Origin: Candidatus Omnitrophota bacterium
GTDB taxonomy: Bacteria; Ratteibacteria; UBA8468; B48-G9; JAFGKM01
Direction of reading: 5' to 3'
DNA length: 64,000 bases
Assembly: GCA_016928555.1 (NCBI GenBank)
Contig: JAFGKM010000005.1
Location: forward strand, 9,758 to 73,757
Shown here: positions 12,819 to 57,509 of the stretch, piece after piece
How positions within the stretch are numbered: the stretch's first letter is position 1
Layout: each line of letters opens with the position of its first letter
Program-made: the position numbers and the translations under genes
Notes under the pieces: generated by a model
Seen by the model: only the letters and a program-made list of their open reading frames with translations
Database searches by the model: none
What the model was told of the DNA's origin: nothing

Positions 12819-12853
12819 ATATTTCTATTCTCATGATTCCATTGGGGGTAAAA

Positions 12854-13867: not shown

Positions 13868-15051
13868 AGGCTTCGTGCAAATTCTCTGATAGTCTCCAGC
13901 CTGTCGATTTCGGCGTCGGGCAGAACATTGTCTGAAACTTCCAGAATTAAAGGCTCGCCCCTTCTGTAGCTTTTTTTGAATTCTGCAAGGAAGTTTTTGA
14001 ATTGAGTATCGGAAAAAGATGATTTGAAAAGAATCGTTGAAGGTATTCCCCCGCAAATTACCTGTTCCGGACGCAAACTGTCTCTTATTTCCCTGTAGGT
14101 ATTTTTTACCATGGGGGCTGTACTTACAGCCTGCAGAATGTCTATGCCGCTCTGTCTGTATAACTCCAGCAATTGATTGTTTTCGCCGTCGCAGTGAGAG
14201 ATGACCAATCCGCCTTTTTCATGTATAATTTCGCATACATTATTCAAAAAAGGAAGGATATGTTCTCTGAAAAAAGGAGGAAAAGTGAGCATGCTGTCAT
14301 AGTTTCCTCCCCAGACTACTATGGGTTTCTTTGCACATTCTGTTACAGTTTTCAAAATACTCAATAAAAAACTTTCAAGCACTTTGCATAATGCGAGAAG
14401 TTTTTTTAGATTAAGCTTGTATTCTATATAAAAGAAAGAAGGATCCATTAAATCACGAAGAACGGCATGCATGGGACTTGCCGCCAGATAGCCGTAAACA
14501 GGGGGGAATCCTTCGTCTCCGACGGCCTCCAGTGACATGCGGTAATTTTCCGGTTTAGGGATAACCTTGACGGAAGCAAAGATATCCATAACCTTGCTAT
14601 AATCATCCTCGGACTTTATAAGATGCTCTTTTATAGGCGGTAAAGTTGAACCCTGCTTTTTTAACGTCTCGTCCATCAGGAAGCTGCCGGATAAATTACT
14701 TTCGGGGAGTTCGTATTTAACCCGTATCAAACCGTTATCGTTATTTACAATCGTCTTAAAAGAGGGGTCCAAAGCAACGTCATATGGAATATCTCTGGAT
14801 GAAAAAATGCCCAATAGCCTGTTTTGAAGAGAAATAATGTTGTAGTTATCGCTAAAATCAGGAAGAATTTTATTATAAGTGAGGTCAAGATTTTTAACAA
14901 TCTGTTTTAAGCTCAGGCCTTTAAATTTTTCCGGCAGGATCCCTTTATAAGAATTGCTGTAGTACCATATATCCATTCTTGGAGCAAAGGGAACGCCTTC
15001 CTGCATATTACCCCTCAATGCTTCCAAAAAAATCTCTTTTTTATTTTTCAT
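13864..15051 (-). CDS. URO-D-like family protein, paralog 2
   Basis: SHCDGEN...LEVSDNVLPDAEIDRL is a URO-D-like C-terminus. It is convergent with paralog 1 and overlaps it by 4 nt. Confidence 0.65.
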   Translation of the reverse strand: MKNKKEIFLEALRGNMQEGVPFAPRMDIWYYSNSYKGILPEKFKGLSLKQIVKNLDLTYNKILPDFSDNYNIISLQNRLLGIFSSRDIPYDVALDPSFKTIVNNDNGLIRVKYELPESNLSGSFLMDETLKKQGSTLPPIKEHLIKSEDDYSKVMDIFASVKVIPKPENYRMSLEAVGDEGFPPVYGYLAASPMHAVLRDLMDPSFFYIEYKLNLKKLLALCKVLESFLLSILKTVTECAKKPIVVWGGNYDSMLTFPPFFREHILPFLNNVCEIIHEKGGLVISHCDGENNQLLELYRQSGIDILQAVSTAPMVKNTYREIRDSLRPEQVICGGIPSTILFKSSFSDTQFKNFLAEFKKSYRRGEPLILEVSDNVLPDAEIDRLETIREFARSL

Positions 15052-16790: not shown

Positions 16791-17102
16791 TTGGAGAAAG
16801 GTATGAAAAAGCTTGAAGCAATTCAGAAACTGCTGACTGAACATAAAGAGGAACTGCTGGAAAAATATTCTTTGAGAGAAATAGGAATATTCGGATCATA
16901 TGTAAGGGGTGAACAGAAAGAAGTGAGCGATTTGGACCTTCTTGTGGAATTTGATGAAGATGCGAGAATAAGCCTGATGGATTTTGTCGGGATAGAAAAT
17001 GATTTAAGCGATTTGTTGGGAGTTAAGGTAGACTTGGTGGAAAAATCAGCGTTGAAACCGAGAATAGGCAAGCGTATATTGGAAGAGGTAGTCCTCTTAT
17101 GA
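16791..17102 (+). CDS. mntA: MntA-type nucleotidyltransferase antitoxin (minimal NTase)
   Basis: [18 protein letters not shown] = GSx10DxD NTase motif; 103 aa. It overlaps hepT by 4 nt. Confidence 0.85.
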
Positions 17103-17440
17103 AAAGAGAGATAGGAGATTATATACAGGATATAGTTGATGCTATGAATGCGGCTGAAGAATTTGTAAAAGAAATTGACTATGCCGAACTTGTATCAGAT
17201 ACGAAAACAATTTATGCCGTTGTCAGGTCTATAGAGATTATAGGAGAGGCGGCTAAAAACATACCTGAGGAAATAAGAAAAAAATATCCGGATATACCGT
17301 GGAGAAAGATGGCAGGAATGCGTGATAAAGTTATCCACGAGTATTTTGGGGTAAAATTGGAAAGGGTATGGGAAACAATTCAGAAGGATTTCCCCGCAAT
17401 AAAACCTCTGTTTGAAAAGATGCTGCATGATTATGATTGA
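17099..17440 (+). CDS. hepT: HepT-type HEPN toxin (DUF86)
   Basis: HEPN Rx4HxY motif RDKVIHEY; 113 aa; classic MNT/HEPN pair. Confidence 0.85.
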
Positions 17441-17446
17441 ATCACC

Positions 17447-17511
17447 CCATACGTCCCCAGCACCTCGCCGAAGCAATCCAGTACCGCAGTCTCGACCGGG
17501 ATATCTGCTGA
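17447..17511. repeat. 65-bp direct repeat copy 2
   Basis: Exact copy of the yifB 3' end, located directly after hepT. Confidence 0.9.
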
Positions 17512-17528
17512 CATTAAGATGAAGCTTC

Positions 17529-17557
17529 TTGACATACACCTGTTTAAGAGGTATATT
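17529..17557 (+). promoter_or_regulatory. sigma70-like promoter TTGACA-N17-TATATT upstream of the RHH antitoxin
   Basis: Consensus -35, 17-nt spacer, and a GGAGG Shine-Dalgarno before ATG 17594. Confidence 0.5.
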
Positions 17558-17593
17558 CTAAATGAATACAAAAGAATACACCGGAGGCATAAT

Positions 17594-17836
17594 ATGTCGA
17601 AAACCATAACTATACGTCTGGACGAAAAAGCCTATCAGAAAATTGCCGATTATTCAAGAGCGGAAAACCGTCCAATTTCAAATTTTATTGAAACGGCCAC
17701 ACTGCGTTTTATGAAAGAACTGGAATTCACTGATGATACTGAGGTTGCAGAGATACTGTCAAATGAATCTTTTGTCAGACGGTTGAAAGAAGGTTCCCGG
17801 GATGCAAAAAAGAAAAGAGGTAAATTTGTCTATTGA
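17594..17836 (+). CDS. ribbon-helix-helix (CopG-like) antitoxin
   Basis: TITIRLDEKAYQKIADYSRAENRPISNFIETA is an RHH beta-strand plus two helices. 80 aa from the Met with the Shine-Dalgarno. Confidence 0.65.
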   Translation: MSKTITIRLDEKAYQKIADYSRAENRPISNFIETATLRFMKELEFTDDTEVAEILSNESFVRRLKEGSRDAKKKRGKFVY

Positions 17837-18116
17837 ATACCGGATTTTTGAAACGGACAGATTTATAAAGGATTTTAAAGAGATTACGCTTTCATTCCGG
17901 GAAACCATTGAAGAGAAGTTGCAGGACCACGTGTATCCGCAGTTGAAACAACAGCCCTATTTCGGCCCTAATATAAAAAAACTCAAAGGGTGGAAGCCTG
18001 ATACGTGGCGATATAAAATCGGCTCCTGGCGTTTCTTTTATGAAATAGACACGGAAGAAAAGATAGTTTTTATGTTAGCGGCGGAGCACCGCAGCAGCGC
18101 CTATAGAAAAAAATAA
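17802..18116 (+). CDS. RelE/ParE-family toxin
   Basis: YKIGSWRFFYEIDTEEKIVFMLAAEHRSSAY C-terminal motif. The likely real start is TTG 17826 after an AAGAGG Shine-Dalgarno, overlapping the antitoxin end. Confidence 0.75.
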   Translation: MQKRKEVNLSIEYRIFETDRFIKDFKEITLSFRETIEEKLQDHVYPQLKQQPYFGPNIKKLKGWKPDTWRYKIGSWRFFYEIDTEEKIVFMLAAEHRSSAYRKK

Positions 18117-24456: not shown

Positions 24457-25617
24457 TCAGCTTATGCCGAAAAAATTTCTGTAGGTTTTTACCACGGCAT
24501 AGTAGTTTTCAATCTTTACGTCTTCGTGTACGGAATGGCTTAAATGAAGGATGTGCCCTCCCTTTGTCCTTAGCCCGTGGTTGAGGCATTCTATGACTTC
24601 TTTTTCCGCCTCGGCAGGGCCTGCATTGCACATTGTGTATCTCGCGTCTATGTTTCCTATTATGCATATCCTGTCAGCAACGCCTTCTTCAATGAGCTTT
24701 TCCCATGTCATGCCGGCGGATTTGTCAACCTCTTTGTATCCGTCAATCCCAGAATTGAAGAAGAAATCGTCTTTTATGGGCCAGTGGTTTCCGTCGGAAG
24801 TGTAGACGGCAAATGCACCCATATTGTGTATCAGATTAACGTGTTCCCGCATTACCGGCAGAATGAATTTGCGGTAAAGGGCAGGGGAGATGAAAGGCCC
24901 TTTGTCACAGCTTACGTCTCCCCCTATAGCGACAACCCTGCATCCGTCTTCAATCATTTTTTTCGTGTATTCAAAACAACCCGCTTTCTGCATTTCAATC
25001 CAGCGGAGGTATATTTCCGGTTTTTCAAGCATCCACATCAGCATAAAAGGCTGGTAAAAAGCCACTCCTGTTCCCGCTCCGGATTCAGCCATATACACCC
25101 AGTCAATGCCGTCGGCTTTCGCGAACTCTCTCACTCTTTTCATGACAGGGCTGTATATACGCAGTTTTTCGCTGTTGCCGGTATTCCCGCCCCATGCTTC
25201 TATTTTCTTTATCATTTCTTCTTCTGAAATCTGCTGGGAATAAGAATGAGCTGGGTTTTCCGGTAACACAAGCTTGGTTCTTTCGTTGAAAATATAAGGC
25301 GTTCCCTCAAGAGTCCAGCTCTTTTTTCCGGTTTTTACGGGGCGCTTGCCCCTGATAAAACCGTGGCTTGTCAGCCGTACCATGTCCAAACCGAAAAAAC
25401 GGCATATCTTGTACTGCGCCTTAGCAGACGCCTCTATGAATTCTTCTTCGGGAACGCCTTCAGCCATCGCATCCCATGCCATTTCCGAATCCGTTGCGAC
25501 GGTTCTTCCGCAGATATCCCAGTGTATGGGTTGAAACGGCTGGAATATTTCAAACAACGGCGTTCTGTCCGGTTTCCCGTGTTTTAGAGCCGTGAATACT
25601 CTTTCTTTCCTGTCCAT
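24457..25617 (-). CDS. URO-D-like family protein, paralog 3
   Basis: URO-D superfamily barrel with ...ICIIGNIDARYTM...GGHILHLSHSV C-terminus; 386 aa. Confidence 0.6.
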   Translation of the reverse strand: MDRKERVFTALKHGKPDRTPLFEIFQPFQPIHWDICGRTVATDSEMAWDAMAEGVPEEEFIEASAKAQYKICRFFGLDMVRLTSHGFIRGKRPVKTGKKSWTLEGTPYIFNERTKLVLPENPAHSYSQQISEEEMIKKIEAWGGNTGNSEKLRIYSPVMKRVREFAKADGIDWVYMAESGAGTGVAFYQPFMLMWMLEKPEIYLRWIEMQKAGCFEYTKKMIEDGCRVVAIGGDVSCDKGPFISPALYRKFILPVMREHVNLIHNMGAFAVYTSDGNHWPIKDDFFFNSGIDGYKEVDKSAGMTWEKLIEEGVADRICIIGNIDARYTMCNAGPAEAEKEVIECLNHGLRTKGGHILHLSHSVHEDVKIENYYAVVKTYRNFFGIS

Positions 25618-42283: not shown

Positions 42284-42359
42284 CGGGGCGTGGCGCAGTC
42301 CGGCTTAGCGCGCCTGGTTTGGGACCAGGAGGTCCTCGGTTCGAATCCGAGCGCCCCGA
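42284..42359 (+). tRNA. tRNA-Pro (anticodon TGG)
   Basis: Manually folded cloverleaf: acceptor CGGGGCG/CGCCCCG with the bacterial tRNA-Pro C1-G72 pair, anticodon loop TTTGGGA, T-loop TTCGAAT, discriminator A. CCA is not encoded. Confidence 0.9.
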
Positions 42360-42462
42360 TTTTTTTAAAATCGGCGAGGATTTGAACAATGGTTCGAGCC
42401 GAGGCACGTTTTTCCCCGGACAATACGCTTGGATTTGCTGGTGCCGAGACCGTGCGAAGCAC

Positions 42463-42483
42463 AATCCGAGCGCCCCGATTTTT
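42463..42483. repeat. 21-nt direct repeat of the tRNA-Pro 3' end (AATCCGAGCGCCCCGATTTTT)
   Basis: Identical to 42343..42363. The intervening 100 nt also carries degenerate tRNA-3'-half-like pieces (GGTTCGAGCCGAGG). Confidence 0.7.
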
Positions 42484-45711: not shown

Positions 45712-46959
45712 ATGGAAGAGAAAAAGGTTAACAGGGGGTTGTTGTTTATTCTGGCTAACGGCGTCTACTTCTTTTCCTATTTCCACAGAGTAGCTGTGCC
45801 CGGAACGATTTTCAATGAGATACAGTCCGAATTTCTTTTGTCTGCCACTGCCGTAGCCGGCCTGAGCGCCCTTACCTTTTTCATGTATGGCGGGATACAG
45901 ATTTTTGGCGGAATCATGTCGGACCGTTTCGGAGGATTCCGTACTTTCTTCATGGGTAGTATACTGCTGAGTATAAGCTCTATCCTTTTCTCTTTTTCCT
46001 ATTCGCCCGCCATGCTTTTCATAACGCGTGCTTTTATCGGGCTCAGCGCAGGTATTGTCTTTACCAGTCTTATCAAAATCCTTAGTATAATGTATAAACC
46101 TGAAGATTTTCCTTTCTATCTGAGCATAATGAGTGTTCTCGGTTATACAGGAGGGGTTTTTGCGACTTTCCCTTTGGAGCGGGCGGTCAGCTTTATGGGA
46201 TGGAGGAACTCTTTCCTTCTGGCCGGACTTTTGTGTTTGATTATTGCGCTTTCCTTTAGGCCCTTTATGAAATCTGCCAGAAGGTCTTTTATACAGAAAA
46301 CAACATTTTCCCTGCGAGCGCTTCTTGCGGTTTTAAAAAATAAAAATTCACTTCCTGTAATCGTTTCTGGGCCCATTAATTTCAGCATATATTTTCTTTT
46401 CCAAACAACATTGGGAGCCAAGCATTTGCAGGATTCTTTTAACGTCACTCCTGCACGGGCGGCGTTTTTTACCTTTATTATGATGATAATAAATACGGGG
46501 TCCGTTTTTTTATCCGGTTATACATCCAAACTTATAGGCCTTCGCAGGCCGATTATACGTATTGCCGCAGGTGTTACCCTGTCCGCTTCAATACTGCTTT
46601 TTTTTAACATTTCATTTATATACAGCACAAAACTGGTCTTGTTTTCATATGTCCTCTTGGCTGTTTCCGCCGCCGCCGCCCCTGTTTTTATTACTACCAT
46701 GAAAGAGATGAATACGATTGAGGTTGCCGCTACCTCTGTCGGATTTCTGAATTCAATAGTATATATTGTCCTGTCTTTGCTGGTTTACGCCGCTGGCCGC
46801 ATACTTGATGTTTTCAGTCATGCTGCGGTTGAAATCGCTGGAATAATTATCTATCCCGGTTTTGCATACAGAATGGTTTTTCTTGTATGTATCATGCTGG
46901 CAGTTTGTTCTTTCCTTGTCTGCTTCCCGATAAAAGAGACGGGCAGCGGAAAACAATGA
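45712..46959 (+). CDS. MFS transporter
   Basis: 12 transmembrane helices; 415 aa; MFS-type motif G(x)LSDRFGG after the second helix. Confidence 0.75.
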   Translation: MEEKKVNRGLLFILANGVYFFSYFHRVAVPGTIFNEIQSEFLLSATAVAGLSALTFFMYGGIQIFGGIMSDRFGGFRTFFMGSILLSISSILFSFSYSPAMLFITRAFIGLSAGIVFTSLIKILSIMYKPEDFPFYLSIMSVLGYTGGVFATFPLERAVSFMGWRNSFLLAGLLCLIIALSFRPFMKSARRSFIQKTTFSLRALLAVLKNKNSLPVIVSGPINFSIYFLFQTTLGAKHLQDSFNVTPARAAFFTFIMMIINTGSVFLSGYTSKLIGLRRPIIRIAAGVTLSASILLFFNISFIYSTKLVLFSYVLLAVSAAAAPVFITTMKEMNTIEVAATSVGFLNSIVYIVLSLLVYAAGRILDVFSHAAVEIAGIIIYPGFAYRMVFLVCIMLAVCSFLVCFPIKETGSGKQ

Positions 46960-47018: not shown

Positions 47019-47092
47019 GCGCCTGTAGCTCAACAGGATAGAGTATTGGGCTTCGAACCCAAGGGTTGCCCGTTCGACTCGGGCCAGGCGCA
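47019..47092 (+). tRNA. tRNA-Arg (anticodon TCG)
   Basis: Manual fold: acceptor GCGCCTG/CAGGCGC, D-arm, anticodon loop CTTCGAA, T-arm GCCCG-TTCGACT-CGGGC, discriminator A. Confidence 0.85.
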
Positions 47093-47185
47093 CCGGCAAA
47101 CCGTTATGGTTTATTTTAGCGCCAAAATGTGGTAGAATTACATTCTGTTTTAGCCGGGAATAAGCATTGTCGATTTGTTGTTTAT

Positions 47186-47258
47186 GGTGGGTGTAGCTCA
47201 GGGGCAGAGCACTAGACTGTGGCTCTAGGAGCCGGGGGTTCGAATCCCCTCACCCACC
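47186..47258 (+). tRNA. tRNA-His (anticodon GTG) with encoded G-1
   Basis: Manual fold: extra 5' G(-1) pairing with discriminator C73, acceptor GTGGGTG/CACCCAC, anticodon loop CTGTGGC, T-loop TTCGAAT. Confidence 0.9.
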
Positions 47259-47292
47259 CTGGATTTTTCTCATTTGCCACTGAAAGAAAAAA

Positions 47293-47333
47293 GGGTCAGG
47301 CATGAAAAAGCTCTGACCCCTTTTATGTTTTTT
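47293..47333. terminator. bidirectional intrinsic terminator (GGGTCAG-loop-CTGACCC flanked by A-run and T-run)
   Basis: The hairpin is followed by TTTTATGTTTTTT on the + strand and preceded by AAAAAA. It serves the tRNA-His transcript and the convergent BNR-repeat gene. Confidence 0.6.
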
Positions 47334-47338
47334 AGGTT

Positions 47339-48742
47339 TTACCTTAATGAAACCAGCCATGCGAGAGGACGCAGGACTGTTCTTACCAGCATGCGCACAG
47401 CAGGCCTTCTGCTGATGTATGATGCGGCAGAGGGGCTGTGTTTGTAATACCACCTGACAAATGCCCTGCCTGCCCTGTTTGTCAGCAGGTGCCTGTCGCG
47501 GAAATCCTGAAGCTTCATTACTTCCGACGCCATCGGTGTGCCGTATGCCGCGGTGGCTATGAAACACCAGCCGTCGCTGCGGGCAAGGTCAACAAATTGC
47601 CCAAAATTGGCGTAGATACTCTGGAAACTGCTGAAATACTGGGACCATACCGCCACAACTTTGTCCCCGCTCACCGCCACCTGAGGGCCATATGCATCCC
47701 CTGTCGTATTGTTTTCCAGCAGTTGGGCCGTTCCCCATGTTGCGCCGCCATCGGTGGAATAGTTGGAGTAAATACTAACGGAACTGCCGTCAGACTGGAG
47801 CCATACCGCCGCAACCTTGTTTCCGTCCATCGCCACCTGGGGGGACTCTGCATCATAGTTAGCAGTTTCCAGCAGTTGAGCCGTTTCCCATGTCGCACCG
47901 CCGTCGGTGGAATAGCGGGCGTGGATATTATTGTAAGTGCCGTCAGACTGTCGCCACACCGCAACAACTTTGTCCCCGCTCATCGCCACCTGGGGGTAAT
48001 ATGCATCATAGTCAGCAGTTTCCAGCAGTTGGGCCGTTTCCCATGTCGCGCCGCCATCGGTGGAATAGTTGGAGTAGATACTAGCATAACTGCCGCTCCG
48101 CTGGTACCACACCGCAACAACTTTGTCCCCGCTCATCGCCACCTGGGGGTCATCTGCATCATAGTCAGCAGTTTCCAGCAGTTGGGCCGTTTCCCATGTC
48201 GCGCCGCCATCGGTGGAGTAGCGGGCATAGATATTATCGTCAGTGCCGTCAGACTGGGGCCACACCGCCACAACTTTGTCCCCGCTTATCGCCACCTGGG
48301 GGTAATCTGCATTATAGTCAGCAGTTTCAAGCAGTTGGGCCGTTTCCCATGTCGCGCCGCCGTCGGTGGAGCAGTTGGAATAGATACTATTGTAAGTGCC
48401 GTCCCTCTGGAGCCATACCGCCACAACTTTGTCCCCGCTTATCGCCACCTGAGGGGAATATGCATCATAGTTAGCAGTTTCCAGCATTTGGGCCGTTTCC
48501 CATGTCGCACCGCCGTCGGTGGAGCAGCTGGAATAGATATTCAAGTAACTGCCATCATACTGTTGCCACACCGCCACAACCTTGTCCCCGCTCATCGCCA
48601 CCTGAGGGTCATAGGCCTCATATTCAGAAGTTTCCAGCAGTTGCGGAGCAGTATTCCAGATAAGTTCCGGAGCCCCTTCAAGAGTAGTAGATACAAACAT
48701 ACCGATAAACAATGTAAAACACACCATAAAGATTCTTTTCAT
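47339..48742 (-). CDS. secreted BNR/Asp-box repeat (sialidase-like beta-propeller) protein with conserved CFIATAAYG C-terminal domain
   Basis: Signal peptide and seven tandem 47-aa repeats, each with an Asp-box STDGGATW. The C-terminal 75 aa are almost identical to the C-terminus of the 49757..52162 gene. Confidence 0.75.
   Translation of the reverse strand: MKRIFMVCFTLFIGMFVSTTLEGAPELIWNTAPQLLETSEYEAYDPQVAMSGDKVVAVWQQYDGSYLNIYSSCSTDGGATWETAQMLETANYDAYSPQVAISGDKVVAVWLQRDGTYNSIYSNCSTDGGATWETAQLLETADYNADYPQVAISGDKVVAVWPQSDGTDDNIYARYSTDGGATWETAQLLETADYDADDPQVAMSGDKVVAVWYQRSGSYASIYSNYSTDGGATWETAQLLETADYDAYYPQVAMSGDKVVAVWRQSDGTYNNIHARYSTDGGATWETAQLLETANYDAESPQVAMDGNKVAAVWLQSDGSSVSIYSNYSTDGGATWGTAQLLENNTTGDAYGPQVAVSGDKVVAVWSQYFSSFQSIYANFGQFVDLARSDGWCFIATAAYGTPMASEVMKLQDFRDRHLLTNRAGRAFVRWYYKHSPSAASYISRRPAVRMLVRTVLRPLAWLVSLR
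47590..48655. repeat. seven tandem ~141-bp coding repeats (high nucleotide identity)
   Basis: Near-identical 141-nt units are visible directly in the sequence (e.g. ...caccgccacaactttgtccccgct.atcgccacctgggggt.atctgcat.atagtcagcagtttc.agcagttgggccgtttcccatgtcgc.ccgcc.tcggtgga...). Confidence 0.8.
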
Positions 48743-49068
48743 CTGATATCCTCCATTTGACTTTGAAAAAAAAGCTGTTATCCTGCCGACCTTTTTTCAC
48801 CAACAGTGATATTAAACACCCCCGCCCCGGGAATGTCAAGTTTAAATTAGCACCCACAAATACCTCATAAATACAGCAAATCCTCTCCCCACAGCAACTA
48901 CAGATGATTGTTTACTATACAAGCTATCTCAAGGATTTCGGGGCTTTATTTTTTATATCAGGGGAGGGAAGGGGCGAGGATACGGTGCATTTAGGAAATA
49001 AATTTCGATTCATGATGTCAGGAAAGTGATCTACTGTGGTTCCTTTAGAACTCAGGTATGGAGAAAAC

Positions 49069-49099
49069 AGAGGTTCGAATAGTGTTACCCAGGGGACCC
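49069..49099. repeat. tRNA-3'-end-like junction element copy (AGAGGTTCGAATAGTGTTACCCAGGGGACCC)
   Basis: It contains a T-loop-like GGTTCGAAT. It recurs at 49650, 53114 and, degenerate, 52316, each time just 3' of a minus-strand cassette. Confidence 0.6.
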
Positions 49100-49129
49100 G
49101 GACTTCACCTTTACATTCCAATTTGTGTA

Positions 49130-49411
49130 TTATCGGTATGCTTCTTTTCTGTGCCTGACCCGAAAAATTCTTATCTCTCTTGCTTTATCCTTAATTTCAT
49201 AAATGATGCGATAATCCCCGACTTTGAGCCTGTAATCGTTTTTGGAGCCAACTATTTTTTTGGAATGCAATGGCCTGGGATTTGTTTTCAGGTTATTAAT
49301 AGAAGGAAGAAGTTTTTGAAATAAAACGGTTGGTAATTTTTTCAAATCTCTTTCAGCATGTTTTTCAATAAGAATTTCATACACTTTTGTAGTCCTGTAA
49401 AAAATTGTCAA
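49130..49411 (-). CDS. ParE/RelE-family toxin
   Basis: YRLKVGDYRIIYEIKDKAREIRIFRVRHRKEAY C-terminal signature. A possible GTG start at 49384 would remove the overlap with the antitoxin. Confidence 0.8.
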   Translation of the reverse strand: MTIFYRTTKVYEILIEKHAERDLKKLPTVLFQKLLPSINNLKTNPRPLHSKKIVGSKNDYRLKVGDYRIIYEIKDKAREIRIFRVRHRKEAYR

Positions 49412-49583
49412 ATTTTCTAAATTTCATGGATGTTTTACGCATTGCCTTCAATGTCTTAAGGTCTGCAATATCTTCTAGTCTTTCCAGTATTTCTTCATAT
49501 GTGTCCATTGACAAAATTACTCCAACAGGTTTTCCGTTCTTAACTATAATCTCTTTCGGTTTTTCCAGAAGTGTATTATCCAC
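49377..49583 (-). CDS. Phd/YefM-like antitoxin (GTG start)
   Basis: 68 aa. A GGGGAGG Shine-Dalgarno sits 6 nt before GTG 49583. It lies upstream of and overlaps the ParE-like toxin. Confidence 0.6.
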   Translation of the reverse strand: MDNTLLEKPKEIIVKNGKPVGVILSMDTYEEILERLEDIADLKTLKAMRKTSMKFRKFDNFLQDYKSV

Positions 49584-49649
49584 GTTTTCCTCCCCATTTT
49601 ATATGTTACTATTTTACCATAGAATTCAGATAAGAGAAACAGCAACAAA

Positions 49650-49688
49650 AGAGGTTCGAATAGTGTTACCCACCCTGGGATTTTTCTC
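49650..49688. repeat. hybrid junction element: element-type left half plus tRNA-His-3'-type right half (AGAGGTTCGAATAGTGTTACCCACCCTGGGATTTTTCTC)
   Basis: The left half matches copies at 49069 and 53114. The right half matches the tRNA-His 3' end and downstream flank (47246..47275). Identity continues about 150 nt through the terminator and the paralog C-terminus. Confidence 0.65.
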
Positions 49689-49707
49689 GTTTGCCTCTGA
49701 AATGAGA

Positions 49708-49755
49708 AAGGGGCCGGACCTTTTACAGTCCTGGCCCCTTTTATGTTTTTTAGGT
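49708..49755. terminator. bidirectional intrinsic terminator, paralogous to 47293..47333
   Basis: AAGGGGCC...GGCCCCTT stem followed by TTATGTTTTTT; same sequence context as the terminator after tRNA-His. Confidence 0.55.
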
Positions 49756-49756
49756 T

Positions 49757-52162
49757 TTACCGGATCGAAACCAGCCATGCAATGGGACGAAGGACTGTTC
49801 TCACCAGCATGCGCACAGCAGGCCTTCTGCTGATGTACGATGCGGCAGATGGGCTGTGTTTGTAATACCACCTTACGAAAGCCCTGCCTGCTCTGTTTGT
49901 CAGCAGATGCCTGTCGCGGAAGTTGCGCAGTTTGACAACCTCCGAAGCCATCGGCGTTCCGTATGCCGCGGTGGCTATGAAGCAGTTACCGTTGCCGGTT
50001 CCGAAAAACGGGCATGATTTTTTGCCTTCAAACTTGCTTACAAAAGCGTCAGCAAAACCCCCGTTATATGCCGTATCATATGCGCCAGGTGTTACGGGGA
50101 AATCTGTAGAGTATGTCTCTCCAGCGACAAACAGGTTATTCCGGCTGTCCATGGCAATGGCATTAGCATAATCATAATCACCGCCGCCTAGGAAGGTAGA
50201 ATAGAGAAGTTCCGTCAAGTTATTATCAAACTTGCTTATGAAGCCATCAAAAATACCATTGAAGACCGGAGCATAGGCGTCGAGTGTTGTCGGGAAAGAT
50301 TCTGACTCGGTATTTCCCGCCACAAATACATTATCCTGATTGTCTATGGCGACGGCATAACCATTATCTTCATTAATGCCGCCCATGAATGTAGAAGCAA
50401 GAAGTTGTGTCAGGTCATTGTCAAATTTGCCTAAAAAAACATCACTGTGTCCGTTATACACCTCATCATAGGCGCCTGTCGTTGCAGGGAAGTTCTCTGA
50501 AGAAGTCCGTCCTGTTATAAAGACGTTGTCCTGGCTGTCTATGGTTACGGCATAACCAGTATCTTCATTAATGCCGCCCATGAATGTGGAAGCAAGCAGT
50601 TGTGTCAGGTCATTTTGAAACTTGCTTACAAAGGTGTCGCCCCCGCCGTTATATCCTTCATCATAAGCGCCGGTCGTTGCGGGGAAGTTCTCTGAAGAAG
50701 TCATTCCTGTTATAAAGACGTTGTCCTGGCTGTCTATGGCTATAGAATAAGCATAATTCCATTCACTGCCGCCTATGAAGGTTGAGGCAAGCAGTTGTGC
50801 CAGGTTTTTATCGAACTTGCCTACAAAAGCGTTGCTATTGCCGTTAAGTGTTTCAGCATATGCGCCATCCGTTACAGGGAAATCTTCTGACGAGGTAGTC
50901 CCTGCGACAAATACATTATCCATAGTGTCTATCGCAAGGCCGTCTGCACGGTCAAAGTCCTCGCCGCCCAGAAAGGTAGAGACGAGCAGTTCTGACAGAC
51001 TATTATTGAATTTACCTATAAAGGCATCCCAACTGCCGCCGTTATAATTTTCATTATAAGCCTCGTCCGTTGCAGGAAAGTCTTCTGAAGATGTTTGTCC
51101 TGCAAACAGGATATTGTTTTCTTTGTCTATAACCATGAAGTTAATAGTATCGTTGCTATCGCCTCCTATAAAGGTGGAAGCAAGCAGTTGTGTCAGGTCA
51201 TTATTAAACTTGCTTATAAAGACATCATTGGCTCCCCCCTTATACTCTGTCTCGTAGGCACCCTGTGTTGTCGGGAAGTCTTCTGATGCAGTATTCCCTG
51301 CTACAAAGATATTGTCGTTGCTGTCTATGGCGATAGTTGTGGCATAATCAGAATAGCTGCCGCCTATGAAGGTTGAGGCAAGCAAGGGGTCTATCACAAG
51401 CGGCTTTCTCCTGTCATACCTGTTTACGGCAAAGGAATAGGTGTCTTCGGAAATAATCCTATAAGAAGTTTTAATCCCTTTCATGCCTCCCCGTATTTTC
51501 TGGTATGCAAAAGGTTTTGTGAAAGATATATCTCCGAGTTCGGTCTTTACCACCAACTGTCCGTCTTTGTCTACTTCCAGTCCATGTCCTCCCTCAACCT
51601 TTATCCGGATGTCTTTTACTGCTCCGCCCGGCATGACATGAAAAATCTTTTCGGCATTATTGCCCCGTGCACGAAGGGTCAACTCTATGTTCTCGTATAC
51701 CTCTCCGAGGCTGACTGCATTGTAGGATTCAATATTCCTCTGCCACTTTGCCGGGTCATTTCCCTTAAAATAGTTTATCCTTGCCGATGTTTTTTCCCGT
51801 CCTGTTACATCTGCCTGTCCCGCTCCTACAAGATACTCTTTCAATGCTACGCCTATAACTGTCTCTTTCCGTATTCCTGCACGTACTCCTTTTTTCCCGG
51901 TATTCCCCGCCCCTTCGGATACCTTGGGCAGAGAGTAGACTGTTTCTCCCTTATCCGTTACAAAAAGAGTGCCGCCGAATGTCCGCGCGTAATACGCCAC
52001 TTCCCCTGGATACTGTCCGCTGTTCTTGAGAAAGGGGATGCTTGCCAAAGAGAGCTTTAACTTAACCTGCTGTTCTTCAACAGCCCTGTCTGAAACAGCG
52101 GCGAAACTTATGCCCACAAACAGAATCATCAAAATACCGAATATCTTTTTCAATGCCAACAC
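49757..52162 (-). CDS. secreted SBBP-type beta-propeller repeat protein with conserved CFIATAAYG C-terminal domain
   Basis: Signal peptide, an N-terminal domain of about 260 aa, seven repeats of about 52 aa (LLASTFIGGS..D.GYAIAIDSQDNVFVAGNTSSEDFPTT.GAYDE.YNGG.DAFVSKF), then the shared C-terminal 75 aa. Confidence 0.75.
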   Translation of the reverse strand: MLALKKIFGILMILFVGISFAAVSDRAVEEQQVKLKLSLASIPFLKNSGQYPGEVAYYARTFGGTLFVTDKGETVYSLPKVSEGAGNTGKKGVRAGIRKETVIGVALKEYLVGAGQADVTGREKTSARINYFKGNDPAKWQRNIESYNAVSLGEVYENIELTLRARGNNAEKIFHVMPGGAVKDIRIKVEGGHGLEVDKDGQLVVKTELGDISFTKPFAYQKIRGGMKGIKTSYRIISEDTYSFAVNRYDRRKPLVIDPLLASTFIGGSYSDYATTIAIDSNDNIFVAGNTASEDFPTTQGAYETEYKGGANDVFISKFNNDLTQLLASTFIGGDSNDTINFMVIDKENNILFAGQTSSEDFPATDEAYNENYNGGSWDAFIGKFNNSLSELLVSTFLGGEDFDRADGLAIDTMDNVFVAGTTSSEDFPVTDGAYAETLNGNSNAFVGKFDKNLAQLLASTFIGGSEWNYAYSIAIDSQDNVFITGMTSSENFPATTGAYDEGYNGGGDTFVSKFQNDLTQLLASTFMGGINEDTGYAVTIDSQDNVFITGRTSSENFPATTGAYDEVYNGHSDVFLGKFDNDLTQLLASTFMGGINEDNGYAVAIDNQDNVFVAGNTESESFPTTLDAYAPVFNGIFDGFISKFDNNLTELLYSTFLGGGDYDYANAIAMDSRNNLFVAGETYSTDFPVTPGAYDTAYNGGFADAFVSKFEGKKSCPFFGTGNGNCFIATAAYGTPMASEVVKLRNFRDRHLLTNRAGRAFVRWYYKHSPSAASYISRRPAVRMLVRTVLRPIAWLVSIR

Positions 52163-52315
52163 TCCTTTCGGGTTTTTACCCGTTGTTTAAGCAGGAACAT
52201 AAAGCTGACATTTTTTATATGATGAAACCTTTTTCAGTTGTTGTCAATTATTTTTTATCTTGCAGAAGGAGAGGCAGGCGTTTATTTTCTCAAGAAACTC
52301 TGGATGGGCAATAAC

Positions 52316-52345
52316 AGAGGTTTGAACCTGCTCCCCCAGGGACCC
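52316..52345. repeat. degenerate junction element copy (AGAGGTTTGAACCTGCTCCCCCAGGGACCC)
   Basis: Related to the 49069 and 53114 elements at both ends. Confidence 0.4.
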
Positions 52346-52542
52346 AGTTTCGTAATCTTCTTTGAAGTGAAGGGGATGAGAAGAGAGCGAAGACGTTTGG
52401 CTCCAATGAGTAAGAGGAGCCGTACGAATGGCCGACCCGAGCCGTATTGGGAGGCGAGCGGCGCCGGTCCAACTGAAGATTCTTCCTTATTGAACCGAGA
52501 GCGTGTGCAGTATTTCTGGAAAAGATAATCTAAGATATATTG

Positions 52543-52800
52543 TTATCTGGATTTCCTGTATATATCTTTCCTATGTCCGATTGCTTCTGCAAAGATTTCG
52601 TCTTTTTCTATTGTGTAAATAATCCGATAATCTCCGACCCTGTAGGAAAATTCCCCTGTTAGCTCTCCGGTTAGTTTTTTACCTGCAAAAGGACTATCTT
52701 TCAATATACGCAGTTTTTCTTTAACTCTTATCTGAATTTTTTGTGGCGACTTCTCGTATTTCTTTAGAAATGCATTTGTCAGAAAGAGTTGATATTTCAC
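52543..52800 (-). CDS. ParE/RelE-family toxin
   Basis: FSYRVGDYRIIYTIEKDEIFAEAIGHRKDIY motif; 85 aa. It overlaps the antitoxin by 4 nt. Confidence 0.8.
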   Translation of the reverse strand: MKYQLFLTNAFLKKYEKSPQKIQIRVKEKLRILKDSPFAGKKLTGELTGEFSYRVGDYRIIYTIEKDEIFAEAIGHRKDIYRKSR

Positions 52801-53057
52801 TGATTGCTCCCAAAATATTCTTCGTATGAGCTGTACCTTCTATTTTTTATATCTTCTTTGGCCGCGACTATATCTCTGAGTAATTTCCTGTCAGCCAGTA
52901 TTTCCAGAGTTTCAATTTCTTCCAGACTAACTATTATTGCTTTTGCTTTTGACCTTTGAGTTATAATATATCTTTCTCCCAGTGAAATTTCTTTTATTAT
53001 TTGCGGCAGTTTTTCTCTTGTTGCCACAATTCCTATAACTTTATCCATAAGTAACAC
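52797..53057 (-). CDS. Phd/YefM-family antitoxin
   Basis: 86 aa; KAIIVSLEEIETLEILAD is typical of Phd/YefM. It lies upstream of the toxin. Confidence 0.75.
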   Translation of the reverse strand: MLLMDKVIGIVATREKLPQIIKEISLGERYIITQRSKAKAIIVSLEEIETLEILADRKLLRDIVAAKEDIKNRRYSSYEEYFGSNQ

Positions 53058-53113
53058 CTCCGTTATTAATTGTACGGTTAATCGTACACATTGTCAATGG
53101 ATGGAAAAGCAAA

Positions 53114-53144
53114 AGAGGTTCTAATAGTGTTACCCAGGGGACCC
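53114..53144. repeat. junction element copy (AGAGGTTCTAATAGTGTTACCCAGGGGACCC)
   Basis: One mismatch relative to the 49069 copy. It is preceded by similar ATGGA.AAA..A context. Confidence 0.6.
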
Positions 53145-53161
53145 AGCTGCTTTTCCCGATT

Positions 53162-53614
53162 TTAATGTTGTGGAATGTTCTTGAGAGAATCTGCATCCGC
53201 TTTGTCTTTCAATCTTCCTGTAGATTCTTTATTTTTTATCAGGTTTTCCTTGGAAAGAAAAGGTATCTCCAGATCTTCAAGCAGGATTATCTGTTTTGTT
53301 TCATAAGCAGTGTTAAAGTCAACGCCGTCAATATGGGTAATAATGTCTATTCTGCGCGGCACAACGCCTATCTGGAATACTATCTCTTTTTCCGCAAAGG
53401 TCTTTTCATCGATATCTTTCAGGTATGTACCGAAGTCAATAAGAGATTTATAGACTTTTTTTGAATTTTCAGCGCTTGCTTCAACCCATATGTCGAAGTC
53501 TCCTGTCGCCCTCGGATATCCATGGGCGGCCATTGCATAGGCTCCGACCACAAGAAATTTAACCCTGTTTTTTAAGAAGATTTGTAATATGTCTTTGTAG
53601 TCTTCGTTTAACAT
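53162..53614 (-). CDS. nucleotidyltransferase-fold protein (minimal NTase-like, hGG.A...HG..R.T.D.D motif)
   Basis: FLVVGAYAMAAHGYPRATGDFDIWV. 150 aa. It overlaps the upstream small ORF. Confidence 0.5.
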   Translation of the reverse strand: MLNEDYKDILQIFLKNRVKFLVVGAYAMAAHGYPRATGDFDIWVEASAENSKKVYKSLIDFGTYLKDIDEKTFAEKEIVFQIGVVPRRIDIITHIDGVDFNTAYETKQIILLEDLEIPFLSKENLIKNKESTGRLKDKADADSLKNIPQH

Positions 53615-53756
53615 AGTATGAATCCCTGATTGACCAGAGTTCTTCCGTCAACGGCCACATGAAGGATATGCATTCCAAGGGAGATGCATCTGTATAGGAG
53701 TCATTCTCTTTAGACATTTTCTTAAGTCTTGTCTTAGTTTTCATTACTGTTTTCAT
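53559..53756 (-). CDS. small hypothetical protein (65 aa), apparently leaderless, co-transcribed with the NTase-fold gene
   Basis: ATG 53756 lies 6 nt downstream of an extended -10 TGcTATAAT (53763..53771, minus strand). The ORF overlaps the NTase-fold gene start by 55 nt in another frame. Confidence 0.35.
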   Translation of the reverse strand: MKTVMKTKTRLKKMSKENDSYTDASPLECISFMWPLTEELWSIRDSYYVKRRLQRHITNLLKKQG

Positions 53757-53762
53757 AAATAT

Positions 53763-53771
53763 ATTATAGCA
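53763..53771 (-). promoter_or_regulatory. extended -10 TGcTATAAT driving a leaderless small ORF
   Basis: Minus-strand reading ...tgcTATAATatatttATGaaaaca... Confidence 0.4.
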
Positions 53772-53841
53772 TAAATGACAGGGAAATAGAAGCAAAAATG
53801 GAGGGTTCAGGATTTGAGACTAAATATCCCAAAGGCATTGC

Positions 53842-54048
53842 TTATCTTCTATATTCCTGTAAAAAGTCTTCTAATTTTCTGAACTTTAGAGAATTTTGTC
53901 TCATTGCTTTTAACATTTTCAGGTCTTCAATGTCTTTCAACCTCTCAAGGATTTCTTCATATGTTTCTATAGACAAAATTACTCCAACAGATTTTCCGTT
54001 TTTAACTATAAGCTCTTTTGGCATATACATAAGTGCATTTTCCGTCAT
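53842..54048 (-). CDS. orphan Phd/YefM-like antitoxin, paralog of 49377..49583
   Basis: About 80% nucleotide identity to the 49377..49583 antitoxin over the conserved core. It is followed not by a ParE toxin but by the small-ORF/NTase pair. Start taken at ATG 54048. Confidence 0.5.
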   Translation of the reverse strand: MTENALMYMPKELIVKNGKSVGVILSIETYEEILERLKDIEDLKMLKAMRQNSLKFRKLEDFLQEYRR

Positions 54049-54576
54049 TTCCTTTACTGATTTTTTTGATGTTTTACTATAGATGCAGAATTCAGACAAT
54101 GAAAAGGGTCAAAATCTTTATCCTTAGCTGCTCGTTTTTTCCCTCCTGCGCGGCTGTTTTAAAAACCGGTAATAAAAATTCTGTAGTGAGGAAAGTTACG
54201 CGACAATTTCAGCGCGGAGTCCGCCAACGCTTTAGTGGAGGAAATGGCCGACCCGATGCGTTTCGAAAGCCGAGACGGCGCCGAATCCCCCTATGGAATC
54301 AGGTCTACCTGAAAGCGTTGCTGCACAAGGGTTTGCAGTGATATAAGTATTTGGAATGATACTACCAGACCTCATTCTTACTGCCGATTTTATCTGCGGG
54401 AATTAGAGAATTTGACAGGGCAGGGATGCTGTGAAAAAATATATTTTAACTTTACTTGTGTGGATAACTGGAATAAATAGACGAAAGGATATTGCAACAA
54501 AATTGCTCCTGTTTCCCGTTCATCCAGAAGAAAAACAGTATTCCATCAATTATTTACCGGCCGAGAGGCATAGATC

Positions 54577-55482
54577 ATGAAAGAAATTTGGATTGCATTT
54601 GGATTAACGTTTTTCGCGGGAATGGCTACCGGGATCGGCAGTGTCATCGCGTTCACTGCAAAGAGAACGAACTATCGTTTTCTCTCTATGGCAACGGGGT
54701 TCTCGGCAGGCGTGATGCTCTATGTTTCATTTGTGGAGATATTCGTCAAGGCCGGAGAATCTGTTGCGCAACGATATGGCGACTACTGGGGACACTGGAT
54801 CAACGCCGCCTCATTCTTCGGCGGGATGTTGCTGATCGGGGTGATCGACAACTTGATCCCAGCCGCCGAGAACCCGCACGAAACGCACGCGGAAGCCGAG
54901 ACCATGCCGCTCCACAATCCGCTCGCGTTCCCACCCGACTTCCGCAAAGCCGCGGCAGGTGAATCAGCGCGGGGAGAAGGGTTTCACGATCACAGCGTCA
55001 GGCATCATAAGCTGATGCGGATGGGGGTGTTCACGGCCATAGCCATAGGCATTCACAATTTTCCGGAAGGCTTGGCCACATTCCTTGCCGTCCTGCATGA
55101 TCCACACCTGGGCCTCGCCATTGCAGTTGCGATTGCACTGCACAACATTCCCGAAGGGATCAGTGTATCGGTTCCGATCTTCTACGCCACAGGAAGCCGT
55201 AAGAGAGCATTCGTCTACTCTGTGCTCAGCGGATTGGCCGAGCCGATCGGGGCCGGCATTGGATACCTTGCGATCCGGTTGTTCCTGGCAGGCAACGCCG
55301 GGGTGATTCCGTCGGAGGTAATGGGTATTCTTTTCGGGGGCGTGGCGGGCATTATGGTGTACATCAGCCTGGATGAATTACTTCCGACAAGCAGGGCATA
55401 CGGAAAAGGTCACGACAGTCTATTCGGACTGGTAGCAGGCATGCTGGTGATGGCTTTGAGTCTGTTGTTGATGAAGCAATGA
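54577..55482 (+). CDS. zupT: ZIP family zinc transporter
   Basis: ZupT-like His-rich loop (HETHAEAE...HDHSVRHH) and conserved HNFPEG / HNIPEG motifs. It lies in a visibly GC-rich patch. Confidence 0.85.
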
Positions 55483-56287: not shown

Positions 56288-56432
56288 TTTTAAAACAAGT
56301 CCTGCATCCCGGGCAGGTTAAGAAAAATGACGGGGGAGCAATAGAGCAGGGTTTCCTTTTTAGCGGTTCGTGCAGGACGGAGATTTTTACCGTACAGACA
56401 TAAAAAAACAGCCCCCGAAAGAGAGGAATGGA

Positions 56433-57509
56433 ATGGAATATAAAAAGGATTTTGAAGGATTAATGCCGTATTACGAAGCGTTTTGGAACTGCGGGGTGCT
56501 TGACCGCGTGGCTGTTTCAATCACCGCCCCTCGGGAAGGGAAACGGAGTGAATGGGGGAATTGGTTCAAGCCTTCTTTTGTGGCGACAGAGAGAGCGGAA
56601 AAAGTTCTTGACTGTTTTGAAAAAGAAACGGAGCATACTTATTACGGCGGGCTTGCGGCACCTTTATTCTGGCCCAACCTGGGACCGGACGTTTTTTCGG
56701 CTTTTTTGGGAGTAAAAATGAACTATTCAAAAGATTCCGATGATACGTCCTGGGCGGACTGGGCCCATCCGTTTCTTGACAGCTACGCAAAGGTAGAAGA
56801 CCTGCGCATATCGGATGAAAACTCTTTTTATAAAAAGAACATGGAACTGATACGGCTTGCCGCGGAAAAGGGGAGAGGCAGGTATCTTACCGGCGCTACC
56901 GACATGCATGCCGGTTTTGACTCGCTTGCCGTACTCCGGGGAGGGCCTGATAAGGCGGTACTGGACCTTCTGGATAACCCGGATGGTGTTAAAAAGGCGA
57001 TGAGAGTGCTTTACAAGGCATGGCGAAAAGTCTACGAGGACTATTATGCCATAGTCAAGGATATACAGCCCGGGACTACGACATGGATGCCCATATTTGC
57101 CCCGGGAAGGATGTACGCGGTCCAGAACGATTTTTCATGCCTGGTTTCGCCGGCGATGTACAGGGAATTTTTCCTTGAAGAACTTGTTTCCGAGATAGAA
57201 AGCCTTGATTACTCTATCTATCACCTGGACGGGATGGAAGCGCTCCAGCATCTTGACATTCTGTTGGAAATTCCTAAGCTGAATGCGATACAGTGGGTAT
57301 CGGGAGCGCGCTTTGCAGATTCGGGAATTGCAAAATGGCTGTCCCTTTACAAGAGGATACAGGAAAAGAAAAAAGCGATTGTGGTTTATCCTAAAATTGA
57401 TGAAATTAATCTCGTGCTTGAAAACCTGAAGCCTGAAGGACTTCTGATATCAACCGAGGCCGGTTCGGAACAGGAGGCGGAGGCGGTTCTTAAGAATCTT
57501 GGGTGGTGA
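56433..57509 (+). CDS. URO-D-like family protein, paralog 4
   Basis: A GAGAGG Shine-Dalgarno 6 nt before ATG 56433 (MEYKKDFEGL...). The ...IYHLDGMEALQHLDILLEIPKLNAIQW region is URO-D-like. Confidence 0.55.
   Translation: MEYKKDFEGLMPYYEAFWNCGVLDRVAVSITAPREGKRSEWGNWFKPSFVATERAEKVLDCFEKETEHTYYGGLAAPLFWPNLGPDVFSAFLGVKMNYSKDSDDTSWADWAHPFLDSYAKVEDLRISDENSFYKKNMELIRLAAEKGRGRYLTGATDMHAGFDSLAVLRGGPDKAVLDLLDNPDGVKKAMRVLYKAWRKVYEDYYAIVKDIQPGTTTWMPIFAPGRMYAVQNDFSCLVSPAMYREFFLEELVSEIESLDYSIYHLDGMEALQHLDILLEIPKLNAIQWVSGARFADSGIAKWLSLYKRIQEKKKAIVVYPKIDEINLVLENLKPEGLLISTEAGSEQEAEAVLKNLGW

Follow-up and report, generated by a model that had tools for sequence, protein, structure and literature searches.

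In staphylococci, the staphylococcal cassette chromosome mec (SCCmec) and the arginine catabolic mobile element (ACME) occur as tandem elements at the 3′ end of one gene, rlmH (orfX); some of these elements lack a recombinase, short direct repeats lie between them, and the large serine recombinases can act in trans. Casposons, which carry Cas1, PolB, and terminal inverted repeats (TIRs), insert at tRNA genes and duplicate ~14–15 bp of the 3′ end of the tRNA; tandem copies occur. In Dehalococcoides, islands are arranged in tandem at the tmRNA gene ssrA and are integrated by the CcrB-like large serine recombinase DsiB; the CcrB-like integrase gene is located next to the left boundary (attL), and the insertion point lies midway in the T-loop (PMC3146451, in which the role of CcrAB in SCCmec is also mentioned). 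The tyrosine recombinase counterpart is the accretion of cis-mobilizable elements (CIMEs), integrative conjugative elements (ICEs), and integrative mobilizable elements (IMEs) at tRNA 3′ ends, as in the ICESt1 family (PMC5704250). Here, we describe an array of small cassettes directly downstream of the tRNA-His gene in a 64,000-nt stretch of DNA from a Candidatus Omnitrophota bacterium (assembly GCA_016928555.1, contig JAFGKM010000005.1, positions 9,758–73,757), hereafter referred to as the window. The array is modular, its junctions imitate the 3′ end of the tRNA, cassettes are exchanged between genomes and are present or missing at the junctions of relatives, and Pfam scans of selected open reading frames (ORFs) revealed no local recombinase. 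The array probably, though by no means certainly, arose as miniature integrative cassettes, themselves non-autonomous, accreted in tandem at the tRNA 3′ end through the action of a recombinase encoded elsewhere.

The array is probably a form of the tandem site-specific islands that occur at small-RNA genes, and its notable features are units of a single operon and a dedicated junction that imitates a tRNA. It differs from SCCmec and ACME, which have a protein-coding target, are tens of kilobases in size, and show no tRNA mimicry, and from casposons in that no Cas1, PolB, or TIRs (the last by inspection) were seen. As in the ssrA islands of Dehalococcoides, a single small-RNA gene has a stack of units downstream of it, each repeat is immediately preceded by a conserved motif, and integration genes are missing from some units (those of the ssrA islands were proposed to be mobilized in cis); the reverse-strand recombinase gene of those islands lies right at a boundary, as does the recombinase gene of L029, a contig of a relative described below. 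In contrast to those multi-gene islands, the units at this locus are single operons of 0.6–2.7 kb, the target is a tRNA gene (tRNA-His, and tRNA-Gly and tRNA-Pro in relatives) rather than ssrA, the junctions of the window mostly mimic the tRNA imperfectly instead of repeating it exactly, and the window contains no integration module; the L029 recombinase is linked to DsiB and CcrB by domain architecture only. CIMEs, which have kept their att sites and lost integrase and transfer genes (PMC5704250), similarly accumulate in tandem at a tRNA gene 3′ end by site-specific recombination and are open to mobilization by a recombinase provided in trans. They are, however, decayed remnants of much larger ICEs or IMEs, whereas the units found here are uniformly tiny, no parent ICE or IME was seen, and the dedicated junction (element, module, and repeat) suggests a cassette system rather than random decay. 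Integrons and CALINs (clusters of attC sites lacking integron-integrases) also contain promoter-bearing toxin–antitoxin (TA) and other small cassettes in one orientation (PMC4889954), share cassettes among several genomes, and include arrays without an integrase, but no attC hairpin, IntI, or attI was found at this locus, and its candidate sites mimic the tRNA 3′ end, are promoter-proximal, and belong to a tRNA-anchored array.

The array extends ~7.2 kb beyond the tRNA-His gene, and all credible genes in it (47339–54099) are on the minus strand. Its features and immediate neighbours are as follows.

47019–47094: tRNA-Arg gene (ARAGORN and Rfam)
47187–47259, plus strand: tRNA-His(GTG) gene, the anchor of the array (ARAGORN and Rfam)
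47260–47338: left end of cassette A (TGGATTTTTCTC...), homologous to 49676–49756 and containing a hairpin that resembles a bidirectional terminator
47339–48742, minus strand: cargo of cassette A, a BNR-repeat protein (BNR_2) with a CFI-box-CTERM tail (Pfam/NCBIfam)
49066–49099, plus strand: copy S1 of element el1, AACAGAGGTTCGAATAGTGTTACCCAGGGGACCC
49130–49583, minus strand: cassette B, Phd1 (49377–49583) and ParE1 (49130–49411), GC content 33.5%
49647–49675, plus strand: hybrid junction S2, the left part of el1 joined at ACCCA to ...CCC and then to tRNA-His-type downstream flank
49757–52162, minus strand: cargo of cassette C, a DUF7948 and SBBP-repeat protein with a CFI-box-CTERM tail (Pfam/NCBIfam)
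52313–52346, plus strand: el3-type copy S3, AGAGGTTTGAACCTGCTCCCCCAGGGACCC, a type also present in L006, L014, and L029
52347–52542, plus strand: truncated inter-cassette module with a GC-rich core and without the terminal tRNA-His 3′ copy, identically truncated in L012
52543–53057, minus strand: cassette D, Phd2 (52797–53057) and ParE2 (52543–52800) (Pfam)
53111–53144, plus strand: copy S4 of element el1
53145–53850, minus strand: cassette E, a small ORF (53559–53795) and a nucleotidyltransferase-like protein (53162–53614)
53842–54099, minus strand: orphan Phd3 (PhdYeFM), toxin partner missing
54104–54400, plus strand: decayed element (54104–54136) and decayed module (GC motif 54243–54290) at the distal end of the array
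54577: start of ZupT

A 31-mer representing the element matched 49069–49099 without mismatch and 53114–53144 with one mismatch, and none of 100 shuffles matched. Four copies were grouped by a repeat search (49066–49099, 49647–49680, 52313–52346, and 53111–53144, the third being degenerate at 68%), i.e. every copy of the recurrent 30–40-nt element that a preliminary description of the sequence had placed at 49069, 49650, 52316 (degenerate), and 53114 was recovered. The window thus contains three el1 copies and one el3 copy, plus the decayed distal element and module. Every element type is colinear with tRNA-His from GGTTCNAAT to CCCA and ends in ACCC, as the tRNA does, and each element sits on the promoter side of its left-hand neighbouring cassette. 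An exact repeat of the tRNA-His 3′ end was not found in the window with up to two mismatches allowed, and only imperfect mimics are present. A hidden Markov model of the element detected no copies beyond this locus in the whole 64-kb window, on which ground its identity as a dispersed repeat was rejected.

Relatives were found via homologues of the lineage-specific major facilitator superfamily (MFS) gene (45712–46959) just upstream, and share the backbone YjbQ–Ysc84–MFS–tRNA-Arg–tRNA-His. The following arrangements were found past tRNA-His.

L005 (MFS protein 73% identical in amino acids): a lone 190-nt gene-less module, then an exact 16-nt copy of the tRNA-His 3′ end
L006/L007 (MFS protein 67% identical): a long module, HicBA, a junction, and HicAB
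L012/L013 (MFS protein 62% identical): HicBA, HepT/MNT, HicAB, and ParE/Phd, all antisense to the tRNA

The full junction in relatives consists of three parts, i.e. an element of ~30 nt, a module of 100–190 nt, and an exact 16–17-nt copy of the tRNA-His 3′ end. The 30-nt element that had been described as the junction is therefore real, but is just one part of a longer junction that is intact in relatives. Exact 16–17-nt copies were found in L005, L006, L012, L014, and L029; that of L005 is AATCCCCTCACCCACC, extending from mid-T-loop to the end of the tRNA. The ends of the module are conserved (...AATCTTCWTTGAAGG... and ...GAGACCGTGCG...AGCAC), and its middle is variable and often GC-rich. The components have the following sequences.

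Element type el1: AAAAGAGGTTCTAATAGTGTYACCCAGGGGACCC (profile form GGTTCNAATAGTGTNACCCAGGGGACCC)
Element type el3: AGAGGTTTGAACCTSCTCYCCCAGGGACCC, with a T-arm-like hairpin in L029 (profile form AGAGGTTTGAACC...CAGGGACCC)
Module and tRNA 3′ copy: signature GAGACCGTGCG...AGCACAATCC

The tRNA-Pro gene of the window (42284–42359) is followed by a gene-less module of ~100 nt (42360–42460) and then by an exact 16-nt 3′ copy, AATCCGAGCGCCCCGA (42461–42476); the module body shares motifs with the tRNA-His modules of relatives, and two tandem copies are present in L011 and none in L006. Gene-less inserts at tRNA-Arg in L005 (2632–2775) and L012 (10004–10309) end in ~30-nt copies of the tRNA-Arg 3′ end (T-arm and acceptor), and the tRNA-Arg gene of the window is without such an insert.

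Two further observations concern the sequences between cassettes. In L006, short repeated motifs (CATTGCGAGCGA, CATTGCAAGGCG, and CTCGCAATGACA), which resemble repetitive extragenic palindromic sequences, occupy the region between the tRNA-His 3′ copy and the next HicAB (12790–13000). A conserved GC-rich core of ~90 nt (…GGCTCCRATGAGYAAGAGGAGCC…AATGGCCGACCCGA…GGCGCCG…), with neither an Rfam match nor covariation support, lies inside modules at the following positions.

Window: 52380–52470 and 54200–54290
L005: 4125–4225
L029: 6300–6400

The ParE2/Phd2 cassette (52469–53137) is 93.7% identical to positions 13064–13732 of L012, as compared with 69.7% for the common backbone, and has different neighbours in the two genomes, namely HicAB and an epimerase gene in L012 and, in the window, the nucleotidyltransferase-like cassette and the gene of the SBBP protein. 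Likewise, L006 and L012 share HicBA-1 at 92.7% identity, as compared with a backbone identity of 72.9%. The nucleotidyltransferase-like cassette (53147–53850) recurs in four other settings.

L024–L028 (83% identical): abutting the 3′ end of tRNA-Gly(CCC)
L020–L023 (88% identical): beside ...CAGGGACC, not at a tRNA
L029 (protein 90% identical to that of the window): abutting a tRNA-His 3′ copy
L012 (remnant): abutting AATCCCCTTACCCA

In L024 (9671–10539), and also in L025–L028, a degenerate copy of the last 16 nt of tRNA-Gly (13/16 identical) lies 813 nt away; we estimate the chance expectation for such a match at ~0.014 in the 3.7 kb searched. The ParE2/Phd2 and HicBA-1 cassettes and the nucleotidyltransferase-like cassette, the last between tRNA-Gly 3′-end repeats, thus occur in differing contexts; the preliminary description had proposed to look for individual cassettes elsewhere. 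Whole units also vary in presence at the repeats. The HepT/MNT unit is located between both Hic pairs in L012 and is missing from L006, L014 has an L012-type backbone (96.4%) yet an L006-type junction (97.9%) directly after HicBA-1, and L005 contains the module only. Cassette-level indels at the junctions, another point raised for testing in that description, are therefore found in related genomes (L012/L013, L006, L014, and L005), whereas the empty site that it had envisaged across 47259–54570 cannot be cleanly defined in the available relatives because synteny downstream of tRNA-His is not conserved among them. In several assemblies, contigs stop immediately past the MFS gene or the tRNA genes, as is expected for a repeated or strain-variable locus.

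On the 6.6-kb contig L029, el1 and el3 are present together with a module and a tRNA-His 3′ copy; this contig encodes at positions 892–2451 a 519-aa large serine recombinase with Resolvase, Recombinase, and Zn_ribbon_recom domains that is 23–25% identical to phage serine integrases. The TGA stop codon of this gene is located inside an el1 copy (2445–2470), a TA cassette follows, and a 289-aa ORF without a family match lies just upstream of the gene. Neither the selected ORFs of the window nor the Pfam matches of L005–L014 and L029 include a Phage_integrase domain, and scans of viral contigs yielded no relatives, whether with the module motif, with a relaxed pattern for the element, or with the L029 recombinase. 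A 394-aa protein encoded in the L012 array was considered as a recombinase and set aside, as it has no Pfam or NCBIfam match and there were no grounds for this assignment.

In the mechanism that we propose, each unit would be one operon with its own promoter, oriented antisense to the tRNA, and a full unit would end in a ~30-nt mimic of the tRNA from the T-loop to the 3′ end (el1 or el3), a module of 100–190 nt, and an exact 16–17-nt copy of the tRNA-His 3′ end. A site-specific recombinase supplied from elsewhere would insert, remove, and exchange units at these tRNA-like sites, by which units would pile up next to the tRNA. The best candidate enzyme would be a large serine recombinase like that beside the L029 element copy; that the mover belongs specifically to this class is a tentative proposal. 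Crossover would take place either in the T-loop or at the terminal ACCC(A), and insertion at the tRNA-proximal end would fit the decayed element and module at the distal end, which resemble the lone module of L005; the crossover point and the direction of growth are, together with the class of the enzyme, features that we infer. Most modules and all exact tRNA 3′ copies are gone from the array of the window, which is therefore probably partly fossilised and immobilised. A broader interpretation appears doubtful at present, namely that the array belongs to a cassette platform distinct from integrons, with single-operon cassettes, a mimic of the tRNA T-arm and acceptor plus a module as a portable recombination site, a trans-acting recombinase targeting the T-loop (probably a large serine recombinase), and capture at the 3′ ends of tRNA-His in the window and of tRNA-Gly and tRNA-Pro in relatives; TA, defence, and surface-protein genes would then be kept by Omnitrophota in a store that is anchored at tRNA genes and open to exchange.

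Several points weigh against accretion by a site-specific recombinase. The 3′ strand of the T-stem is not conserved in the elements of the window, which are imperfect tRNA mimics, and, as no direct repeat of the tRNA in the window is exact, these copies may have ceased to be substrates for recombination. Recombinase, integrase, and transposase domains were absent from Pfam scans of selected window ORFs of ~100 aa or more, in agreement with the lack of an integrase reported earlier (a few further scanned ORFs had no Pfam match whatever, and the Ysc84, MFS, flavodoxin-like, and YjbQ-like genes, which lay outside these scans, were named from relatives), and no recombinase was found within 10 kb of the L012/L013 arrays. 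The L029 contig is without a tRNA gene, so that its recombinase is linked to the array by the junction sequences only. Among the available contigs, no true empty site and no circular or excised form was observed. The element family was detected in just a few related lineages of metagenomic origin, the large collections having been scanned with a 19-mer that was too strict (see below), and the conserved junctions, at 82–90% identity over 80–190 nt, could support RecA-dependent exchange without any dedicated enzyme.

The last point leads to the explanation that the locus is a hot spot of homologous recombination, at which element and module act as portable homology for RecA-dependent swapping, loss, or duplication of cassettes or for gene conversion after DNA uptake. 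This is in keeping with the 82–90% identity of junction modules over 75–135 nt within and between genomes, with the 330-nt, 83% identical 3′ block shared by the surface-protein cassettes, and with the lack of a local recombinase, but we consider it unlikely, given that the nucleotidyltransferase-like cassette at tRNA-Gly is bounded by the 3′ repeat of that tRNA without shared flanking homology, the lone L005 module is bounded by an exact 16-nt repeat, the breakpoints at the 5-nt ACCCA or the terminal ACCC are too short for RecA, and a large serine recombinase gene ends inside the L029 element. Exact repeats could also be generated by a target-duplicating insertion, in which casposase- or transposase-like staggered cuts from mid-T-loop to the tRNA 3′ end would duplicate 16–17 nt. 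In tRNA-His, tRNA-Pro, and tRNA-Gly alike, the repeats begin at one and the same position of the T-loop (AATCC...) and extend as far as the end of the tRNA, the module bodies at tRNA-His and tRNA-Pro are homologous, and casposons duplicate the tRNA 3′ end. Such an insertion is nevertheless quite improbable: Pfam scans of the loci examined revealed no Cas1 or transposase domain, no TIRs were evident at module or cassette ends by inspection (no dedicated TIR search was run), the TA cassettes of the window are bounded by imperfect mimics (el1 and el3) instead of exact duplications, and the 30-nt repeats of the tRNA-Arg inserts indicate that the length of the repeat is not fixed.

The remaining explanations dispense with mobility at tRNA-like sites or ascribe it to another system. 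A role of the element as a functional RNA or as a signal in regulation (promoter, operator, insulator, terminator, or processing signal of tRNA-like form), within an inherited gene order, could account for its strong conservation between genomes and for the position of el1 54–64 nt upstream of the antitoxin start codon in both ParE/Phd pairs of the window, beside promoter-like hexamers. We regard it as very improbable, since the downstream gene lies anywhere between 54 and about 325 nt from the element, the stop codon of the L029 recombinase gene overlaps with one copy, and cassettes are shuffled among relatives, so that gene order is not inherited. In addition, Rfam identified only tRNAs in the window and L006 and no family for the element or module, neither the elements (z −1.0 to +1.9) nor the modules (z −1.0 to −2.0) had a significant fold, and RNAalifold gave −12 kcal/mol with an unfavourable covariation term; a structured RNA was rejected for want of support from fold z-scores and covariation. 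A classical integron array without integrase is hardly tenable and is largely refuted. CALINs are common (PMC4889954), and small, mostly TA cassettes in one orientation, with conserved intervening sequence and no integrase, are what such an array would contain. However, DNA folding of 101–111 nt around four junctions (six folds, two junctions being folded on both strands) revealed no conserved attC-like imperfect hairpin (z −0.97 to +1.90), there is neither R″/L″...L′/R′ symmetry nor GTTRRRY, the conserved element is at the promoter end of the cassette and not at its 3′ end, the junctions imitate the tRNA 3′ end in an array that abuts the tRNA, and IntI was found at none of the loci. The preliminary description had offered serial integration at tRNA-His or an integron-like array; the tRNA-anchored modular array stands, and the integron mechanism, for which there is no attC-type hairpin, does not. 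Finally, the order of surface protein and TA pair repeats twice, and the 3′ end and flank of the first block are duplicated 2.4 kb away, as if a block had been duplicated locally and had then diverged. For the cargo genes this is refuted, and it retains next to no credit as a general explanation: identity is 42% between ParE1 and ParE2 over 48 aa and 34% between Phd1 and Phd2, which excludes a recent local duplication; beyond their final 78 aa the surface proteins are unrelated; and another genome contains a copy of the second TA pair at 93.7% identity. Only for the block of CFI-box-CTERM tail and flank does such a duplication keep some plausibility.

The hybrid copy S2 bears on how accretion by a site-specific recombinase might have proceeded. 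Its left 25 nt are of the element type, and from ACCCACCC onward it corresponds to the tRNA-His 3′ end and flank; positions 47237–47268 match 49653–49684, and 47283–47577 match 49701–49995 at 83%. The chimeric structure noted earlier at 49650 is thus real, although its reading as the signature of recombination between an att site and tRNA-His is not compelling: recombination of an element with the tRNA at ACCCA and deletion of a module between TTACCCA (YACCCA) of the element and CACCCA of a downstream tRNA-His 3′ copy fit equally well. The duplicated flank (~330 nt, 83%) comprises the terminator and the coding sequence of the shared CFI-box-CTERM tail, and identity between the BNR and SBBP proteins, which are otherwise unrelated, is 91% across their last 78 aa. 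The shared 3′ block (47339–47577 and 49757–49995) includes the tail, with the same terminator and flank in both, which suggests that the 3′ block of these surface-protein genes was spread by recombination.

With regard to gene content, the minus-strand cassettes with two surface proteins, two ParE/Phd pairs, and an orphan Phd that had been listed in the preliminary description were all identified by Pfam/NCBIfam, and its tRNA-His is complete, with coordinates (47186–47258) that are one base off according to ARAGORN and Rfam. Adjacent ParE_toxin and PhdYeFM domains occur twice (Pfam), and with the orphan Phd they identify type II TA cargo; ParE1 reaches RelE_StbE at 28.7 bits (cutoff 27.9), ParE2 falls just under it at 26.7 bits, and Phd3 is 69% identical to Phd1 in amino acids. 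Both ORFs of the pair described as a small ORF and a nucleotidyltransferase are present, and the identity of the latter is less firm. The 150-aa product of 53162–53614 has no direct Pfam or NCBIfam match, DUF6036/DUF2204 nucleotidyltransferase models are near threshold via homologues 72–78% identical, and a PDB search gave AbiEii at E = 0.019, by which the nucleotidyltransferase label is plausible, albeit weakly supported. PADLOC defence-system models had no matches in the cargo. The GC content of the TA cassettes is 31–39%, as compared with 45–50% for the backbone, and a sigma-70-like promoter (TTGACA-17-TACAAT) is located at 53097–53069, in the interval from element S4 to Phd2. The orphan Phd is fused with the nucleotidyltransferase-like unit, whose own upstream junction has been lost; a junction candidate at 53798–53831 was rejected, being by homology in L029 and L024 the upstream region of the nucleotidyltransferase-like cassette itself.

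Scans of genomes, metagenomes, and viruses with the exact 19-mer GGTTCNAATAGTGTTACCCA yielded only chance matches (a coding region of an Acidobacteriota metagenome-assembled genome and an AT-rich contig), the pattern being too strict because relatives have C where it demanded T (GTGTCACCCA). When the island was compared with plasmids and phages by BLAST, the sole match to a plasmid was the tRNA. Two recent surveys of Omnitrophota genomes refer to TA cargo and to mobile elements, and the tRNA-His array is not described there.

If accretion by a recombinase acting in trans is correct, cassette stockpiling of the integron type would have arisen independently, with the tRNA 3′ end as the dock and tRNA mimics as the cassette sites, in a phylum without a cultured model. 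This would explain both the movement of TA and surface-protein genes between Omnitrophota genomes sharing only ~70% nucleotide identity and the assembly breaks at this tRNA. The L029-type serine recombinase and el1/el3 plus tRNA-His would form a testable pair and possibly a compact integration tool. If the array is only decayed debris of accretion, it would be an ordinary tRNA-linked island with unusually small units.

Three other features were observed outside the array. The ZupT gene (54577–55482) encodes a protein 80–90% identical to proteins labelled Planctomycetes, Nitrospirae, Lentisphaerae, and Verrucomicrobia, an unusually high cross-phylum identity that suggests acquisition by horizontal transfer, and because of this identity across phyla its use as a synteny marker was dropped. 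A second small TA cluster (16791–18116) is flanked by a comM-like Mg-chelatase gene and by mnmG; it contains an MNT-type nucleotidyltransferase gene and a pair of DUF6290-like (weak match) and ParE genes, and junction elements were not detected in it. Several uroporphyrinogen decarboxylase-like (URO-D) paralogues are present in the window, at 12833–15051 and 24457–25617 and, by position only, at 56370–57509, an ORF with no Pfam match at E ≤ 1e-5; URO-D genes are also located beside the tRNA cluster in relatives.

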